DNA from: Octopus vulgaris
Taxonomy: Eukaryota
Direction of reading: 5' to 3'
Assembly (NCBI GenBank): GCA_951406725.2
Contig: OX597820.1
Coordinates: 10,664,001 to 10,728,000 of the forward strand
Length of the DNA stretch: 64,000 nt
The stretch's first letter is position 1; every line of letters begins with the position of its first letter. The notes beneath the pieces were generated by a model, which worked only from the letters and a program-made list of their open reading frames with translations, was not told the DNA's origin and did not search any database. Shown here piece by piece: positions 8,831-60,104 of this stretch. Made by a program: the position numbers and the translations under genes.

Positions 8831-8900
<70 letters not shown>

Positions 8901-8904
<4 letters not shown>

Positions 8905-9018
8905 GAAAGAATGGAGTCGAACGAAGATGTTAACAAAATTCCTTTACTCTCGACATATGTTTCGGTTAAACGAATTTTCCATGCTGACGATAGACATAGG
9001 ATAATTCATTCACCTACT
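8901..9018 (-). mobile_element. Internally deleted relative of the 17837-18128 hammerhead element
   Basis: Shares ATGGAGYCGAACGAAGAT...ACAAAATTCCTTT and GATAATTCATT; keeps only the GAAAC-AUAU-GUC half of the ribozyme; (TA)n flanks. Confidence 0.55.
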
Positions 9019-12268: not shown

Positions 12269-12759
12269 CCCTCCAATAATAGAAGTTATATCAATTGCTA
12301 AAACGAAGCATTATTGTGCAATCGAAGCGGGTAATGAACTAGTTGGACGCTTCTGGTAATCTAATTTATTGACTTGATTTTTATTCCCAATCACACACGT
12401 GTTGTTCGTTTGGGAATAGAATGAGTTGATGCTCATAGTCGGAAGTAATGTTTGATCATGAGAGGAGTGGAGTAAAAGAAAACTCTGTTGCTTCCAGTTA
12501 AATATTTTTGCCTCACATCCTTCAGTGTTTCGAAAATGTTAAATTACTTCTAATGTCGGTATCACTTTAAATCTCACACAAGACAATAAAATATGAACTA
12601 AAGATACACTGAGCAAATTCAATCATCCAATGTTTTCCTCTATAATAGGAAAAAAAAACATATATTTGATATTTTGTGAGGTGAGTTAGTGATGTAGTTC
12701 TTTTAATGCACTTAAAATCGGTCCTAACCATTGCTGTTACAGAAGTATCATGAAGCAAA

Positions 12760-13500
12760 GGCGGTGAGCTGGCAGAAACGTTAGCACGCCGGGCGAGACG
12801 CGCAGCTGTATTTCGTCTGCCGTTACGTTCTGAGTTCAAATTCCGCCGAGGTCGACTTTGCCTTTCATCGTTTCGGGGTCGATAAATTAAGTACCAGTTA
12901 CGCACTGGGGCCGATGTAATCGACTTAATACCTGTGTCTGTCCTTGTTTGTTTCCTCTGTGTTTAGCCCCCGGAGGGTAATAAATAAATAGGTATTTCGT
13001 CTACTGCTACGTTCTGAGTTCAAATTCCGCCGAGGTTGACTTTGCCTTTCATCTTTTCGATGTCGATAAATTAAGTACCAGTTATGCACTGGGGTGGATA
13101 TAATCGACTTAATGCGTCTGTCTGTCCTTGTTTGTCTCCTCTGTATTTAACCCCTTGTGGGTAGTAAAGAAATAGGTATTTCGTCTGCCGCTACGTTCTG
13201 AGTTCAAATTCCGCCGAGGTTGACTTTGCCTTTCATCCTTTCGGGGTCGATAAATTAAGTACCAGTTACGCACTGGGGTCGATGTAATCGACTTAATCCG
13301 TTTGTCTGTCCTTGTTTGTCCCCTTTGTGTTTAGCCCCTTGTGGGTAGGAAAGAAATAGGTATTTCGTCTGCCGTTACGTTCTGAGTTCAAATTCCTCCG
13401 AAGGGTCGATAAATTCTGTACCAGTTGTGTACTGGTGTCGATCTGATCGACTGGCCTCTTCCCCCAAAATTTCAGGTTTTGTGCCTAGAATAGAAAAGAA
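12760..13500 (+). mobile_element. SINE family A multimer (one head, ~184-bp body repeated three times plus an older-type tail)
   Basis: GTATTTCGTCT junctions recur at about 12808, 12992, 13177 and 13360. Confidence 0.85.
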
Positions 13501-17778: not shown

Positions 17779-17836
<58 letters not shown>

Positions 17837-17839
<3 letters not shown>

Positions 17840-18125
17840 GTGAAGGGAAGAAATGGAGCCGAACGAAGATTCTACAAAATTCCTTTTTATTATTTTCTTT
17901 CTACACATGTTTCAAAGGCTGCAAATTCCCAAATTCGGATTGAATAAGGAGACCATTCTGCAGCTTTCTCTTCAGGAAAAACCAGGAATTTAAAATCTCA
18001 AAACAAATGCGCAGCAAGCTTTTCGAACAAAACGCTCCCTAGGAGCCCATGGTAAAAATGGCACAAAACTGTATCGGTTAAATTTTGAATAATCCGTAAC
18101 AAGATAATTCATTTATCCATTTCAT

Positions 18126-18128
<3 letters not shown>
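17837..18128 (-). mobile_element. Hammerhead-bearing non-coding element H2 inserted in (TA)n
   Basis: ~290-bp block with pure (TA)n on both sides; relative at 8901-9018. Confidence 0.7.
17896..17981 (-). ncRNA. Type I hammerhead ribozyme candidate with long stem II
   Basis: UUUUUC-CUGAAGA-GAAAGCUGCAGA...UUUGCAGCCUUU-GAAAC-AUGU-GUA-GAAAGA; intact core. Confidence 0.7.
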
Positions 18129-18178
<50 letters not shown>

Positions 18179-18309: not shown

Positions 18310-18712
18310 TATTTCTTTATTACCCATTAGGGGATAAACATAGAGGGGACAAACAAGGACAAACAGAGGAATTAAGTGAATTACATCGACCCCAATGCGC
18401 AATTGGTACTTAATTTATCGACCCCGAAAGGATGAAAGGCAAAGTCGACCTCGGCGGAATTTGAACTCAGAACAAAATACCTATTTCTTTACTACCCAAA
18501 AGGGGCTAAACACAGAGGGGACAAGCAAGGACAGACAAACGAATTAAGTCGATTACATCGGCCCCAGTGCGTATCTGGTACTTAATTTATCGACACCGAA
18601 AGGATGAAAGGCAAAGTCGACCTCAGCGGAGTTTGAACTCAGAACGTAACGGCGGACGAAATACGGCTACGCATTTCGCCCGGCGTGCTAACGTTTCTAC
18701 CAGCTCGCCGCC
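18310..18712 (-). mobile_element. SINE family A dimer
   Basis: One head and two bodies. Confidence 0.85.
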
Positions 18713-18723
18713 TTTCTATTGCG

Positions 18724-24437: not shown

Positions 24438-26204
24438 TCTATGTTTGACTTTTGCTTTATATTTGTACAAGTTGGCTCCAAGTCTCACCCAGAGACCTCA
24501 AGAGACAACAGGGTTGGAAGTTCATGTTGTTGTTATGCCTAGTGTGCCATATATTTGGGGGGTGGCGATGTTGTACTAATGAATGTCTAAAAAAAAAAAG
24601 TTTTTTTTTTTTTTAATTTTTTTTTTAAACCGAAAATTATGTTTGTTTTAAACCTTGAGATTACATAGAGAGTATTTTGCGTAGGATATGAGCAGTTCCC
24701 ATGAGCACTATCTTTTGAACTTCTGCCATTTTTGGGTTTCCTGGTATCTGAGTTAGGTAGCTATCAGCCCCTTTTGCTATCATTCCCAGGGCACCTATGA
24801 CAACAGGTATTGTTTTAGTCTTCAGCTTCCACATTTTGCTGATTTCTATTTCAAGATCTTTATATTTGCTCAGTTTTTGGTAGGTCTTGACAGATACGTT
24901 TATATCGATTGGGACAGTCATATCAATGAGGAGGCATGTTCTTTGTTTGAAGTTTTTCAATATGATGTCTGGCCTATTTGCATCTATCTTCCTGTCAGTT
25001 TGAATGGTGAAGTTCCAGAGGAGTGAGATGTGGTCATTTTCAAGCACTGGGGGTGGTTTGTGTTCCCACCAGTTTTTTTCATGGGGCAAATCCAGGTTTT
25101 TACAGATTACCCAGTGAATATATTGTGCAGCTCTATCGTGCCTGTTGAGATACTCTGTAGGCGCTAGAAGACTGCACTTGGAGACCACATGGTCAATGGT
25201 TTCATTTTGTTGCTTGCATACACGACACGTTGGACTGCTTCTGATCTTTAATATGTTGGCCTGGTAGTTTCTTGTTGGTAGGCATTGATCTTGAGCTGCT
25301 ATGATAAACCCCTCTGTTTCAGATTTTAAGCCAGAGGCCATTAGCCATTGATGGGTCAGGGCTTTGTCGATATCTGCATTATTCGCTCTCTTTGGGTATT
25401 TGCCATAGAGAGGTTTTTCTTGCCATTTATTATTCAGAATATCTAAGGCCGCAGTTTTGGCACGGGTTTTCATGCGCCTAGCTTTTTCTGTGCTTGTTTC
25501 TTGTATATCTATCTCTAATTCCGAAATTGGTTGTATTCGGAGTTCACTTAGATATTCCTTTGCCTGTTTTGTGACTGAGTATGATGCTTTCTTGTTTTCA
25601 TGTTTTGAGACAAGTTTTAGCATCCAGTCCTCAGAGTTTTTCAGGTAGGTGTCTAGGCCAATTGTAGCAATCTTCATTGTTATTGCCAGTTGCAAAAGAC
25701 CACGGCCTCCCTCTTTTCTTGGCAGATATAGTCGCTCTGTATCTGCCTTAGGGTGGTGCATTCTATGCATTGTCAACAGTTTCCTTATTTTTCTGTCGAG
25801 CTGACATATTTCAGTAATTGACCAGTTAACAATATTGAAACTGTAAGTCACGACTGGTATAGCTAATGCATTGATTGCTTCGATCCTGTTTCTTGCATTC
25901 AGCTCTGTCTTGAGTATTGCTCTCACTCTTCGATAGCATTCTCTCCTGATCCTTTCCTTCATCTCTGAATGCCTTATTCCGTTCCCTTCAATTATCCCTA
26001 GGTACTTGTAGCTCTCCGCTGGGTCTAGTTCTTTTATGACATTCTGTTGGTCAAGGTTAACGTTAGATGTTTCTGTCATTTTTCCTTTGATAAAGGTAGC
26101 CTTTGCACATTTATCGAGGCCGAATTGCATTCTGATGTCGTCACTGAATTGTTTGACTATCGCTAGTAAGCCCTTGAGTTGTTGATCAGCCCTTGAGTTG
26201 TTGA

Positions 26205-26205
<1 letters not shown>
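24438..26205 (-). mobile_element. 5'-truncated R4/Dong-like non-LTR retrotransposon (RT C-terminal part, CCHC knuckle, REL endonuclease)
   Basis: Open 489-aa ORF: FGLDKC, YKYLG, RKEGGRGL, AAQDQ, CRVC..ETIDHVVSKC, RHD, NRPD, KLSKY; (TAA)n both sides. Confidence 0.95.
24661..26130 (-). CDS. Partial non-LTR retrotransposon RT/REL protein; truncated just downstream of where the YxDD motif would lie, so non-functional
   Basis: ORF track; frame continues upstream to about 26186 (QQLKGLLAIVKQFSDDIR) and then runs into (TAA)n. Confidence 0.85.
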   Translation of the reverse strand: MQFGLDKCAKATFIKGKMTETSNVNLDQQNVIKELDPAESYKYLGIIEGNGIRHSEMKERIRRECYRRVRAILKTELNARNRIEAINALAIPVVTYSFNIVNWSITEICQLDRKIRKLLTMHRMHHPKADTERLYLPRKEGGRGLLQLAITMKIATIGLDTYLKNSEDWMLKLVSKHENKKASYSVTKQAKEYLSELRIQPISELEIDIQETSTEKARRMKTRAKTAALDILNNKWQEKPLYGKYPKRANNADIDKALTHQWLMASGLKSETEGFIIAAQDQCLPTRNYQANILKIRSSPTCRVCKQQNETIDHVVSKCSLLAPTEYLNRHDRAAQYIHWVICKNLDLPHEKNWWEHKPPPVLENDHISLLWNFTIQTDRKIDANRPDIILKNFKQRTCLLIDMTVPIDINVSVKTYQKLSKYKDLEIEISKMWKLKTKTIPVVIGALGMIAKGADSYLTQIPGNPKMAEVQKIVLMGTAHILRKILSM

Positions 26206-26243
<38 letters not shown>

Positions 26244-27240
26244 CATTATTATTGTTATTATTATTTTCTGTAATTTAGTTCATTCTGCACAACTTTTGCC
26301 TATCGGTTTTGTAATTTTACCTCTTTTCAGGCAGAGAACGGTAGGGTGCAAGGTAGAAAAACAAGAAGAAAGGAAAATAAACGAACGAATTTATCTGACA
26401 GCGCAATATTTTCTTTCTAAATCTGCAATGCGCACAACCTCATACAAAATCTTCGCACAATGACTTGTTGAACATTTACCACCTCACAACAACCTGCATT
26501 AAAACCTTAAGTGCAAATAATAAATAAGTCATCGATTTTCAATTAAGACTATCCTGTGCACAGGAAATACGGAAGGGAAGTCCCGATCAGAAAAAAGTGG
26601 AGGAAAAAAACCAGGTTTCATCAGTCTTGATAACAAAACGTTAAACGCATTAAACATTCATATCGCTGATTAAGCAAACACTCTGGCCTTGTTCGTCATA
26701 ACGAGGATGCACTACTTCCGTTTCTCGTTGTTTTTTTGTATCAGTTGTACTTTAAATCTAATAATCTCTCTTTTTCTATCTCCCAGTTCAACGTTCACCG
26801 TTCCTCCACCACTTCTTTCTCTTTCAGAATGTCGTTACTTTGTCATTACATAGTTCCTTCGTTTAGTTTGCTTTCATTTTAATTTGCTTCTAGTTTTCAA
26901 TCATTTACGACTTATATATTTTATAATTATATTTCACATTCATATTTTATTTTCATTTCCGTTACACTCTCCTTCTCTCTATCTCTCACTTCTTCCTCTC
27001 CCATTCTGTATTTCCCTGCTTTTCCCCTGTCTTTCTATCCTCATTGTTTTCTCTTGAGCTTCTTTTACCTTCCCATTTCTATTTATTATCCTTTTTACTC
27101 CCTCTATTTCCACTTCATCATCCAATTTCTCTCTCTTTATCTTAGCTTCTGTCCTTCACTCTTACTTTCTCTTCCCTCACTTCTGCTTCATTTTATAAAA
27201 AAAATTTCATCATCCATTTTACATTATTTTTCTACCATTA

Positions 27241-56476: not shown

Positions 56477-56489
56477 AGCACGTGATACC

Positions 56490-57095
56490 TATTTCTTTAC
56501 TACCCACAAGGGGCTAAACACAGAGAGGACAAACAAGGACAGGCAAACGGATTAAGTCGATTACATCGACCCCAGTGTGTAACTGGTACTTATCTAATCG
56601 ACCCCGAAAGGATGAAAGTTCAAAGTCGACTTCGGCGGAATTTGAACTCAGAACGTTACGGCAGACGAAATACCTATTTCTTTACTGCCCACAAGAGGCT
56701 ACACACAGAGGGGATAAACAAGGACAGATAAACGGATTAAGTCGATTATATCGACCCCAGTGCGTAACTGGTACTTATTTAATTGACCCCGAAAGCATGA
56801 AAGATAAAGTCTACCTCGGCGGAATTTGAACTCAGAACGTAGCTGCAGGCGAAATACCTATTTCTATTTCTTTATTACCCACAAGGGGCTAAACACAGAG
56901 GGGACAAACAAGGACAGCCAAACGGATTAAGTCGATTACATCGACCCAGTGCGTAACTGGTACTTAATTTATCGACCCCGAAAGGATGAAAGGCAAAGTC
57001 GACCTCGGCGGAAATTGAACTCAGAACATAACGGCAGACGAAATACGGCTACGCATTTCGCCCGACGTGTTAACGTTTCTGCCAGCTCACCGCCT
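56490..57095 (-). mobile_element. SINE family A trimer with 16-bp TSD
   Basis: TACAGCACGTGATACC at 56474-56489 and 57096-57111. Confidence 0.9.
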
Positions 57096-57769
57096 TACAG
57101 CACGTGATACCACAATACAAAAACACTAACATTCCTGAAATGTCCTAATTTCCACAGGTTGACATCATCATCTTCTTCATCAACAAATTCTACTCTTCAC
57201 AATCAATAAGACTGACTTCCCCAAACAAAATAAAACCTCTGTCGTTAAAAGAATTCGCCAAACCATATTTCGTTTCCCTTGTCTTGCTATAGAAGAGAAT
57301 AATAGGCTCACGTGTGCGAAAACAAATATTTCACCACGTGACTAAAAACCATGTTAGCAATTAATTGAATACAATTCTTATGAATTGATTTTATTTTGCT
57401 TTCTTCCTTTCCATTTTCAAAACCATTCATTCGACAAAAATCTAATTAGTTTCATATATTTCAAAAATTTATTAGTTTTTTCTTTTGTTTTTTTAATATA
57501 AAAATTATCTTGCTAATAAAAATTTTGGTTGGTATCGATAGTAACAAATCAAACTAAATGATTCAGGTTACTAAGTTCATTACTACAATCTACTTAGTGC
57601 AATTAATCCTGAAATATTTGTAAAATATTTCAATTAGTAGAATCATAAGTGGATTAAATGTTTTTCAAAAGATTTCTTTTCTAAATGGTGTTATCAATAT
57701 ATGGCACCGCAATCGTAACAGGTGTCGAGTCAACACAGGGAAATATTCATTAACCGTATCGTACCATTG

Positions 57770-57925: not shown

Positions 57926-58376
57926 AAAGCCTGCTCGGTTGAAGGAGGGCGGTGGGGCAATAATCACTAAATACTTGGTTTATAGACGGATCCATCCAAC
58001 ACATGATAGCAGTTGTTCGACATAAACCAGAAATGCCAGGAAGACACTGACCGAGTGCGTGCAGAACGGTTTACTCAATTTGTGGGCACCTTGGACAAGC
58101 TCGTGTGATAGCACATCCGTGCCTGCAGAGCATATGGCGATTTAAATAAGAGTTTTGACTGTTAATTCCAGCAGGTAGACATACTTAGTATTTCATTTGA
58201 TTAATTTTAATCCTTCAGCTATTTTTTCGGGGGCCCGAAATCGCCTGTATTAATTGATTCTGTTTTTACCATTTATAAAATATTACACTAGATAATAACA
58301 AATGATATCTTCTCAAATTAATTTTTTCGTAAATTATTCGTCTCCTGAAATATTTGCTCCGTGTCGAAATACATAC

Positions 58377-58420
<44 letters not shown>

Positions 58421-58422
<2 letters not shown>

Positions 58423-59278
58423 ACAATTGAGGGTAAAATTAATTAATTAATCAATTTCACCAAGTGTTCAGTATGTAAAAGGACCATTTAAGGCGAATTC
58501 AAAATATTACATTATATAATTAGGGCTTAGTAAAATAAATTACTTTGCCACATACTGAACTTAGTAGAAATAGCAGCCAAAAAAATTTTATTAGCATTTC
58601 TACTACTTAAAGAAAATTTCTCTCAGATAATGTTTACTCCAGACAGCCCACGAAGGTTTGGGGGTAAATACAGAAAAATATCACAAGTACATAGATCGTT
58701 TGAGTACGTCAACGTTTCAAGATTAGCCAAATAAAATCAGCATCTCTTTCATCAGCTCAAAATTTCATAATTTGGATTTGGAAACACTAAAAAGAAGGAA
58801 CTTTACCTATCAGCGAACTTGTCGCTTCAGATGAACCACTCCAACTAAACAGTGTCAACAAATTCAAAATGCGCAGGCGTAAAATTCTGCACTCCCCATT
58901 CCACCCACGTGGTCTATCTAGCAAACATTATATTTTAACCGCGAGAACCGAGGCAGTATGACCGAGAGAAATGAATTATAATATCAACAATTGAGGGTAA
59001 AATTAATTAATTAATCAATTTCACCAAGTGTTCAGTATGTAAAAGGACCATTTAAGGCGAATTCAAAATATTACATTATATAATTAGGGCTTAGTAAAAT
59101 AAATTACTTTGCCACATACTGAACTTAGTAGAAATAGCAGCCAAAAAAATTTTCTTAGCATTTCTACTACTTAAAGAAAATTTCTCTCAGATAATGTTTA
59201 CTCCAGACAGCCCACGAAGGTTTGGGGGTAAATACAGAAAAATATCACAAATACATAGATCGTTTGAGTACGTCAACG

Positions 59279-59280
<2 letters not shown>
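58421..59280 (-). mobile_element. Retrozyme- or Penelope-pLTR-like partial tandem element H3 (564-bp period) in (TA)n
   Basis: 58421-58716 and 58985-59280 are near-identical; a hammerhead spans the repeat boundary. Confidence 0.8.
58699..58761 (-). ncRNA. Type I hammerhead ribozyme candidate with intact core
   Basis: UUUGAG-CUGAUGA-AAGA...UCUU-GAAAC-GUUGAC-GUA-CUCAAA. Confidence 0.75.
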
Positions 59281-59312
<32 letters not shown>

Positions 59313-59316
<4 letters not shown>

Positions 59317-59514
59317 GGAGAGTTCACGGAAAAAAAAGACGAAGACAGGTGGTGTAGAAAACAAACAGATGTATTATTATAACGCTCAGGAATTGAAAAA
59401 GTCTTTTACGTTTGGAGCCTATGCTCTTCTACAGAAAGGGGCACCGAAAAAAACAAGAACAGAAACAAGGAGAGAAAATAAACGTGTGTAGTGGCTACCG
59501 ATCTATCATGGCGA

Positions 59515-59515
<1 letters not shown>
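59313..59515 (-). mobile_element. Hammerhead element H1 with mutated core (CUGUAGA...CAAA)
   Basis: Homologous to the copies at 9031 and 21037; (TA)n both sides. Confidence 0.7.
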
Positions 59516-59570
<55 letters not shown>

Positions 59571-59701
59571 CATATATGTATATATATATACGCATATATG
59601 CAAGTGTGTATGAGCGTACGTACGTATATATATATATATATATGGTAAAACAGATTAGTTTATCACAAATTCTTTGTATGTAAACTCCTAACTATATCTC
59701 C

Positions 59702-59776
<75 letters not shown>

Positions 59777-60104
59777 ACCAAAATATGACCTTTTTGAACT
59801 TAGAATTTTTTGTCTGTATATATAGATACTTCCAAACAAACATGATTTTTAATGAAATACAAATATTTTCTCAAGATTTTTCCTTGTAAACTGTTTTAAC
59901 ATTTTTTTTTATTATTATCAAAGAATGTATATATGTATTGTCACTTTTTATGACAACACAACAAAGTTTTTACAAAGCTTTTACATTTTACTTTTGACAA
60001 TCTTTTTCTAAAAAAGTGAAACCGGTCAAGTGAATAAACACCTTTTAAAATTGCATTTACAAACCTTCTTTTATATATATTTTTTCTGGTTCTCGTAGTA
60101 ATTA

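Follow-up and report, generated by a model that had tools for sequence, protein, structure and literature searches.

Positions 58421-59280 of the window, the whole 64,000-nt stretch of Octopus vulgaris DNA that was analyzed, hold 1.52 head-to-tail copies of a non-coding 564-nt unit, with (TA)n on either side. Positions in the unit are given as q, the window position minus 58420; on this scale q falls along the RNA that carries the hammerhead motif, and it would rise as reverse transcription proceeds. The copies form a direct repeat of 300 nt (58417-58716 and 58981-59280, period 564) with 2 mismatches, at 58590 and 58687. This length takes in 4 nt (ATAT) common to the flank, and the last ATAT of the flank (58417-58420) also fits the unit's own continuation, a microhomology. 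An initial annotation of this DNA had described a direct repeat of about 296 bp with about 2 differences, no long open reading frame (ORF), and (TA)n on both sides. These descriptions agree with what is found: the longest stop-free frame in the element is 66 codons, and the (TA)n runs cover 58382-58419 and 59280-59313. The GC content of 58001-60000 is 30%. The features are collected in Table 1.

Table 1. Features of the element at 58421-59280 and of a repeat elsewhere in the window.
Feature	Position	Strand	Basis
(TA)n target, fixed-end side (3' end of the hammerhead strand)	58382..58420	.	sequence; junction found 570 times genome-wide
Complete 564-nt unit (q1-q564)	58421..58984	-	repeat and genome comparison
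Second unit, partial (q1-q296), 5'-truncated	58985..59280	-	unit junction found 226 times genome-wide
Type I hammerhead, predicted cleavage after GUA, 58705/58704	58699..58761	-	descriptor, covariation
Second-hammerhead stub: stem III, cleavage site, and 3' strand of stem I only	59263..59280	-	sequence
Predicted multibranch RNA domain near 3' end	58466..58560	-	fold z -4.1 (58411-58600), covariation
Second fixed start site, q77-q95 (mostly q84, q93), AT-rich	58497..58515	-	inverted arms of other copies begin there
GC-richer segment upstream of hammerhead	58770..58960	-	sequence comparison with sister family B
(TA)n target, truncated side	59281..59313	.	sequence
SINE-like repeat copies	56480-57096, 18310-18715, 12757-13409 and others		

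The hammerhead motif matches exactly as the initial annotation wrote it (58699-58761, minus strand, type I, cleavage at 58705/58704). A hammerhead descriptor finds 2 matches in the window, whereas 30 sequences simulated from a first-order Markov model of the window contain none. The isolated 81-nt motif has a folding energy no better than that of its shuffles (z -0.29), and the Rfam check suggested with the initial annotation returned no hammerhead match at E<=5 or E<=10, only miRNA noise driven by (TA)n. The motif is identified by the descriptor match together with covariation. In an alignment of 11 hammerhead rows from the 564-nt family (family A) and two sister families, B and C, 91% of cells pair, compared with 84 +/- 1% in shuffles and at most 45% in slid alignments. 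Two-sided changes are present in 6 of the 17 pairs across the three families, a covariation that is inflated by related rows and that includes a family C row misaligned at its 3' end. The core is invariant save for position 7 and a U3-A8 swap in family C. Of the 11 aligned hammerheads, 9 have no pairing at the first position of stem II, and none has G10.1-C11.1. On the evidence of this alignment, the core and stems are conserved under selection. Relative to the family majority, the window hammerhead carries two changes that break no pair: 58751, at variable core position 7, and 58744, in the stem II internal loop. The family core is CTGACGA; the exact pattern with the window copy's CTGATGA is found at 3 places in the genome.

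Stem III of family A is self-complementary (ACGUUGACGU, ACGUUAACGU, ACGUACGU), and that of family B is nearly so. Co-folding predicts that two motifs join through a 10-bp intermolecular helix III, a dimer arrangement that has been set out in PMC4209133. In one published test, only 1 of 9 predicted Xenopus retrozymes was cleaved (10.64898/2026.07.22.740005), and hammerhead mutants left insertion by an Anolis Penelope-like element (PLE) unimpaired in vitro (PMC11167929). As for the truncated end of the window copy, the initial annotation had placed its 5' boundary (59280) within stem III, about 12 nt from the cleavage site. The distance of 12 nt stands, but the boundary coincides with A14, in the GAAA of the core, and is thus next to stem III rather than within it. 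The stub retains the whole of stem III, the cleavage site (59269/59268), and the 3' strand of stem I, and, speculatively, it could be cut within a double-hammerhead fold if transcription from the flank reads into it. Because it contains just one intact hammerhead plus this stub, the window copy is probably a dead-end daughter, not a source.

Other repeats are present in the window. A second, unrelated insertion of about 294 bp (17836-18129) lies between (TA)n runs and contains a hammerhead-like type I motif on the minus strand (about 17896-17981), with a long stem II, a CUGAAGA core, stem III ACAUGUGU, and the triplet GUA. Relatives of this insertion are found at loci L002 and L082 and at 8840-8945 of the window, and a similar motif is present in L068; it is probably another hammerhead retroelement family. 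An abundant SINE-like repeat with tandem units of about 185 nt and a B-box-like GGAATTTGAACTC motif has many copies in the window. In addition, a 537-codon open frame on the minus strand (24661-26274) resembles a fragment of a LINE reverse transcriptase, to judge by a motif.

The 564-nt unit is multicopy. A search of the 2.8-Gb genome with the unit yielded 1602 candidates, and among the 40 that were scored, full units are 97-99% identical, which bears out the earlier description of the element as young. Exact-pattern counts, which are lower bounds and include some segmental duplicates, gave 570 (TA)n/q1 junctions, 506 hammerheads, and 226 internal q564/q1 junctions; reversed-pattern controls gave 0. 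The search for copies that the initial annotation had proposed thus reveals a dispersed family, and the 570 fixed-end junctions, on many contigs and with differing flanks, indicate mobility. For detailed parsing, 114 loci were taken and 11 dropped (8 duplicates, 2 unparsed, and 1 nested double insertion). The remaining 103 consist of the 28 best matches of the unit search and 75 loci from the first 100 junctions listed; these 75 slightly under-represent long copies, a few of which fell into the first set. A further sample comprises 7 loci found by the hammerhead pattern. Contigs from sequencing runs that may be of RNA span the unit and carry the letters of the family majority, but they were set aside as evidence of expression because they reveal neither strand nor ends nor an RNA source.

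It is highly improbable that the locus is a local tandem duplication, a satellite, or an assembly artefact with a chance hammerhead-like motif. The unremarkable folding energy of the isolated motif and the lack of an Rfam match would fit such an origin, as would the finding that some loci are segmental duplicates of one another. However, the copy census, with hundreds of dispersed copies that have one fixed end and 226 identical junctions, refutes it, and the covarying stems and invariant core also argue against it. Furthermore, the two units in the window differ at 2 sites and share a subfamily marker. This marker, at q228, is common to 10 other loci; the window copy also has three near-private changes, at 58744, 58751, and 58767. 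Elsewhere, a short inverted copy (q1-68 plus inverted q91-219) occurs with the same flank at at least 8 places (L036, L038, L039, L127, L139, L144, L145, and L166), and has therefore been multiplied by a larger repeat or by segmental duplication. Two family insertions lie side by side in one (TA)n at L028/L053, L033/L034, L134, and L154, which suggests that the same microsatellite is targeted repeatedly.

Family copies have one end fixed at q1 against (TA)n and a variable opposite end. The forward arm has a median length of 309 nt, exceeds one unit in 11 of 70 cases, and reaches 1928 nt in the longest of the set. An inverted arm is present in 55 of the 75 junction-sampled loci. Over all loci, this arm starts at q77-95 in 62 of 73 cases (42 at q84 and 8 at q93), and 58 of these 62 abut (TA)n. 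The forward arm passes the start of the inverted arm by more than 30 nt in 51 of the 62, so that both arms copy the same stretch. Both start sites, q1 and q77-95, are AT-rich and match the target over a few bases; the second is unused in the window copy. Starts at q81-84 without a q1 start are seen in L202, L206, L209, and L215. In published descriptions, PLE insertions are partial tandems in which the 5' copy is inverted and one of the arms carries a tail (PMC8557442, PMC3846280), and the in vitro account of this pattern has both strands cleaved and extended, with two internal start sites for reverse transcriptase (RT; PMC11167929). The fixed 3' end, 5' truncation, and partial tandem support the earlier proposal of a PLE-type insertion, and the parsed loci display the rest of the PLE signature, the inverted 5' copy with a tail on one arm.

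The two sister families share the architecture of family A and align with it over the whole unit at 55-65% identity. Family B (562 nt, 63% identical) has the triplet GUC/GUU and is found in some cases in (TATC)n; family C (about 545 nt, 57% identical) has the U3-A8 core. Arrays are up to 3.6 units long in family A (3.4-3.6) and 4-5 units in family B. Sister-family loci include L221 (C1 at about 22.62 Mb), L237/L238 (C14), and L171, and further relatives of the 3' domain lie at L068, L106, L149, and L224. Older subfamilies of family A are 77-87% identical. Since families A, B, and C are alike over the full unit and have kept its size, they probably have a long history as small units. Family B also retains CCACCCACGTG (58901-58911) of the GC-richer segment, which is a possible internal promoter; a σ70 promoter scan of the element was set aside as irrelevant to an animal.

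The 3' 170 nt of the unit form a second conserved fold (z -4.1), with two-sided changes in 7 of 35 pairs. The helix that closes this domain (58550-58560 with 58466-58476) covaries across the sister families, and the fold encloses the second start site (q77-q95). The multibranch domain may be the site at which the RT of a helper element binds or lands. Folded as a circle, the cleavage-to-cleavage monomer has a predicted energy of -154.8 kcal/mol, compared with -116.1 +/- 6.2 kcal/mol for 60 shuffles (z -6.2); stem I is absent from this minimum free energy fold.

No ORF is joined to the unit in the 103 parsed loci or the 7 hammerhead-sampled loci, in accord with the earlier claim of a non-autonomous element. 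Every arm that goes beyond q564 returns to q1. Of 100 loci checked, 3 have PLE fragments in the 2.5 kb past the far end, always with a (TA)n run in between; a PLE fragment that adjoins a family copy in L202 is likewise separated by (TA)n and was taken as an independent insertion. Because no parsed arm enters an ORF, the copies are not the broken-off ends of a longer element. The initial annotation had reasoned that the element would be a truncated pseudo-LTR (pLTR) if its copies were always fragments of a long autonomous PLE; this is not what the 103 loci contain.

Two PLEs are candidate helpers. The first (L091-L101) is young and Neptune-like, with a mean divergence of 1.3% among 10 ORFs, and encodes a 781-residue protein with RT and GIY-YIG domains (Pfam). 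A CxxxCxxC motif, a Neptune/Nematis trait (PMC8557442), precedes the nuclease. One end of this PLE is fixed in (TA)n, and its copies include partial tandems and inversions. It also has an extra upstream 479-residue ORF without a clear Pfam family and, at a distance of about 75 nt from the fixed end, a hammerhead-like motif of atypical form, UUGAUAA...GAAACAUG. The second (L258-L263), an element of about 6.2 kb with frames of 884-1008 residues and many identical copies, appears to be a PLE from its 28% similarity to the first. It is very young and has a C-rich coding strand, a 3-kb CA-rich 3' region, and full tandem arrays; all 3 single copies examined have the same terminus in (TA)n, and a minimal CCGACGA...GAAACGUC hammerhead-like motif lies near that end. 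As part of the search for helpers, a homolog search found 570 mostly unnamed proteins and no clade name. Among the fetched loci, neither these PLEs nor four more distant PLE types show any similarity to the unit profile, a comparison limited to the fetched loci of a GIY-YIG survey that scored 150 of 6136 candidates.

The partial nature of this survey leaves some room for the idea that the unit is the pLTR, or an internally deleted by-product, of a close autonomous PLE, with the copies as truncated ends of that PLE. Many retrozyme families of Xenopus match PLE pLTRs, and 24 of 57 are homologous to transposable elements (10.64898/2026.07.22.740005). However, such an origin is improbable here, given that arms beyond q564 return to q1, that 0 of 103 and 0 of 7 loci enter an ORF, that three families have drifted apart to 55-65% identity and are all still about 545-565 nt long, and that the profile has no match in the termini of the fetched PLE loci.

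If the template were a linear monomer cut by the hammerhead, a cDNA begun at q1 would reach no further than q284. Arms end at q278-290 in 4 of 74 passages, compared with 2.75 expected (p 0.30; 5 irregular loci left out), and in 4 of 127 compared with 3.72 expected when all loci are counted. With no excess of arm ends at the cleavage site, the nearness of the window copy's 5' boundary to it, which the initial annotation had noted, is a coincidence. Units diverge by 0.66% within a locus and 1.95% between loci, with the nearest other locus averaging 0.74%. Inherited markers, defined as those carried by at least 4 loci, account for 92 columns at 23 loci, and in 83 of these columns every successive unit has the marker; the 9 split cases never involve the same column in two loci. 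Grouped by rank in 22 loci, units of the same rank differ by 0.61% and units of different rank by 0.72% (Wilcoxon p 0.92), or by 0.64% and 0.63%, respectively, without L030; this test leaves out 16 irregular loci and assumes that both arms start in one unit. Templates that were aged tandem arrays should give a higher divergence between ranks than within them. This is not seen, suggesting that a monomer was read repeatedly. By these sequence comparisons, the template is likely a monomer that was gone over more than one time; its simplest form is a circle, as has been proposed for such copies (PMC4209133, PMC7229834). The earlier claim of more than one round of reverse transcription is supported by the sharing of markers (83/92) but falls short of proof.

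There are exceptions. At L030, both arms copy one unit, A, followed by another of different sequence, B (5 columns), a succession that cannot come from a pure monomer circle. The arms of L129 look like two templates, and L013 and L160 have one odd unit each. Thus, dimeric or mixed templates occur. In addition, since the nearest locus is nearly as close as units within a locus, some copies could derive from young linear multimers of very young parents. These observations bear on a cycle in which the template is linear, either an uncleaved multimeric read-through RNA or monomers joined or crossed by template jumps, with a hammerhead that trims transcripts or is dispensable. The mixed templates of L030 and L129 and the arrays of 3.4-3.6 units in family A and 4-5 units in family B are consistent with such a cycle, and the lack of excess stops at the cleavage site fits uncleaved RNA as well. 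Unprocessed RNA is also reported as the main in vitro substrate of the Anolis PLE (PMC11167929). Nevertheless, a linear template is rather unlikely as the general explanation. A linear-only cycle can neither lengthen copies nor spread a new marker to all units, and yet 83 of 92 markers are in all units, divergence across ranks equals that within them, and split markers never coincide in column between loci. Moreover, at least two complete hammerheads in one orientation are present in only 6 of the 75 junction-sampled loci.

Together, these results favor the interpretation, held with fair assurance, that the unit is a multicopy, non-coding hammerhead repeat inserted in (TA)n, likely a non-autonomous retrozyme that a PLE copies from a monomer RNA, probably a circular one. 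In the proposed mechanism, the few loci with at least two complete hammerheads would be transcribed. The hammerheads are predicted to cut, probably as a pair via the self-complementary stem III, and by analogy with published retrozymes the 564-nt monomer would be closed into a circle. A PLE endonuclease/RT would cut (TA)n, and the freed TA end may prime inside the RNA at an AU-rich site. The two fixed start sites, both observed, would serve different DNA strands, with q1 used for one of them and q84/q93 for its partner. Each cDNA would extend past the cleavage site and the unit junction and stop at random, and such cDNAs would yield the partial tandems and the head-to-head inverted arms, both of which are observed. 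The window copy would have used only the q1 start and stopped after 860 nt.

Judged by every feature of its sequence that was examined, the 564-nt family is an animal non-LTR retrozyme, whose cleavage and circle are predicted. It is new within this known class: no description of it is present in the open literature searched, and it may already bear a name in a repeat library. As in the metazoan non-LTR retrozymes described in PMC7229834 and 10.64898/2026.07.22.740005, the repeat is non-coding, low in GC, and arranged head-to-tail, with one type I hammerhead of the canonical kind per unit, a short self-complementary helix III, a structured predicted circle, and autonomous PLEs in the same genome. 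The weak first helix II pair resembles that of axolotl HHR_Amex2. Units in the same sources are 170-400 nt (invertebrates, PMC7229834) and up to 972 nt (10.64898/2026.07.22.740005), compared with 564 nt here. In contrast to these retrozymes, the octopus copies are mostly dispersed, sub-dimer insertions with inverted arms rather than arrays, and only 6 of 75 loci pass the 'two complete HHRs' rule of the 2026 survey (10.64898/2026.07.22.740005). The fixed ends in (TA)n and the lack of a homologous PLE pLTR in the fetched PLE loci also set apart this family. A plant LTR retrozyme, with a type III hammerhead in LTRs and a 4-bp target site duplication, was rejected, as the motif is type I and the element is a partial tandem in (TA)n.

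With endonuclease PLEs, as presented in PMC8557442, PMC3846280, PMC11167929, and PMC4209133, the family shares the fixed 3' end, random 5' truncation, partial tandems, and inverted 5' copy, as well as the tail on one arm only, AT-rich or microsatellite targets, and a type I hammerhead upstream of the RT start. It differs in having no ORF and in a tail equivalent of 83-92 nt, compared with 30-40 in PLEs. At both start sites here, a few AT bases match the target; the Anolis PLE, by contrast, begins at a site without homology to the cut DNA (PMC11167929). A fixed outer start with a variable inner junction fits priming from both target strands better than the self-priming of PMC3846280. The MRC1-type non-autonomous Chlamys PLEs of Chlamydomonas likewise form pLTRs and multicopy head-to-tail insertions (PMC8557442). 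However, these Chlamys PLEs have no canonical hammerheads, and their 3' sequence is generally common to them and the autonomous partner, whereas this family has a hammerhead and shares no sequence with the PLE loci fetched.

It has been proposed that PLEs copy retrozyme circles (PMC7229834, from 2020), and a 2026 survey states that the mechanism by which retrozymes enter the genome remains to be elucidated (10.64898/2026.07.22.740005). The octopus family is a young, well-sampled, retrozyme-type unit that carries the full PLE insertion signature, and the markers that its units and arms have in common allow the template to be inferred. As a test system, the family provides an RNA of defined length (564 nt), start sites mapped at two positions, (TA)n as the target, and a pair of young PLEs as candidate helpers. 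A bolder view, possible but doubtful, is that there is an old, self-sufficient lineage of RNA circles of about 550 nt, comprising at least three families that are 55-65% identical, with its own promoter, hammerhead, and covarying 3' landing structure. Such a lineage would hijack the enzyme of a PLE unrelated to it in sequence, and one circle would be copied in two passes of RT, with both target strands serving as primers. If this is true, the insertions would be a genomic record of rolling-circle reverse transcription, a step that has been proposed but is unproven for retrozymes and for PLE partial tandems.
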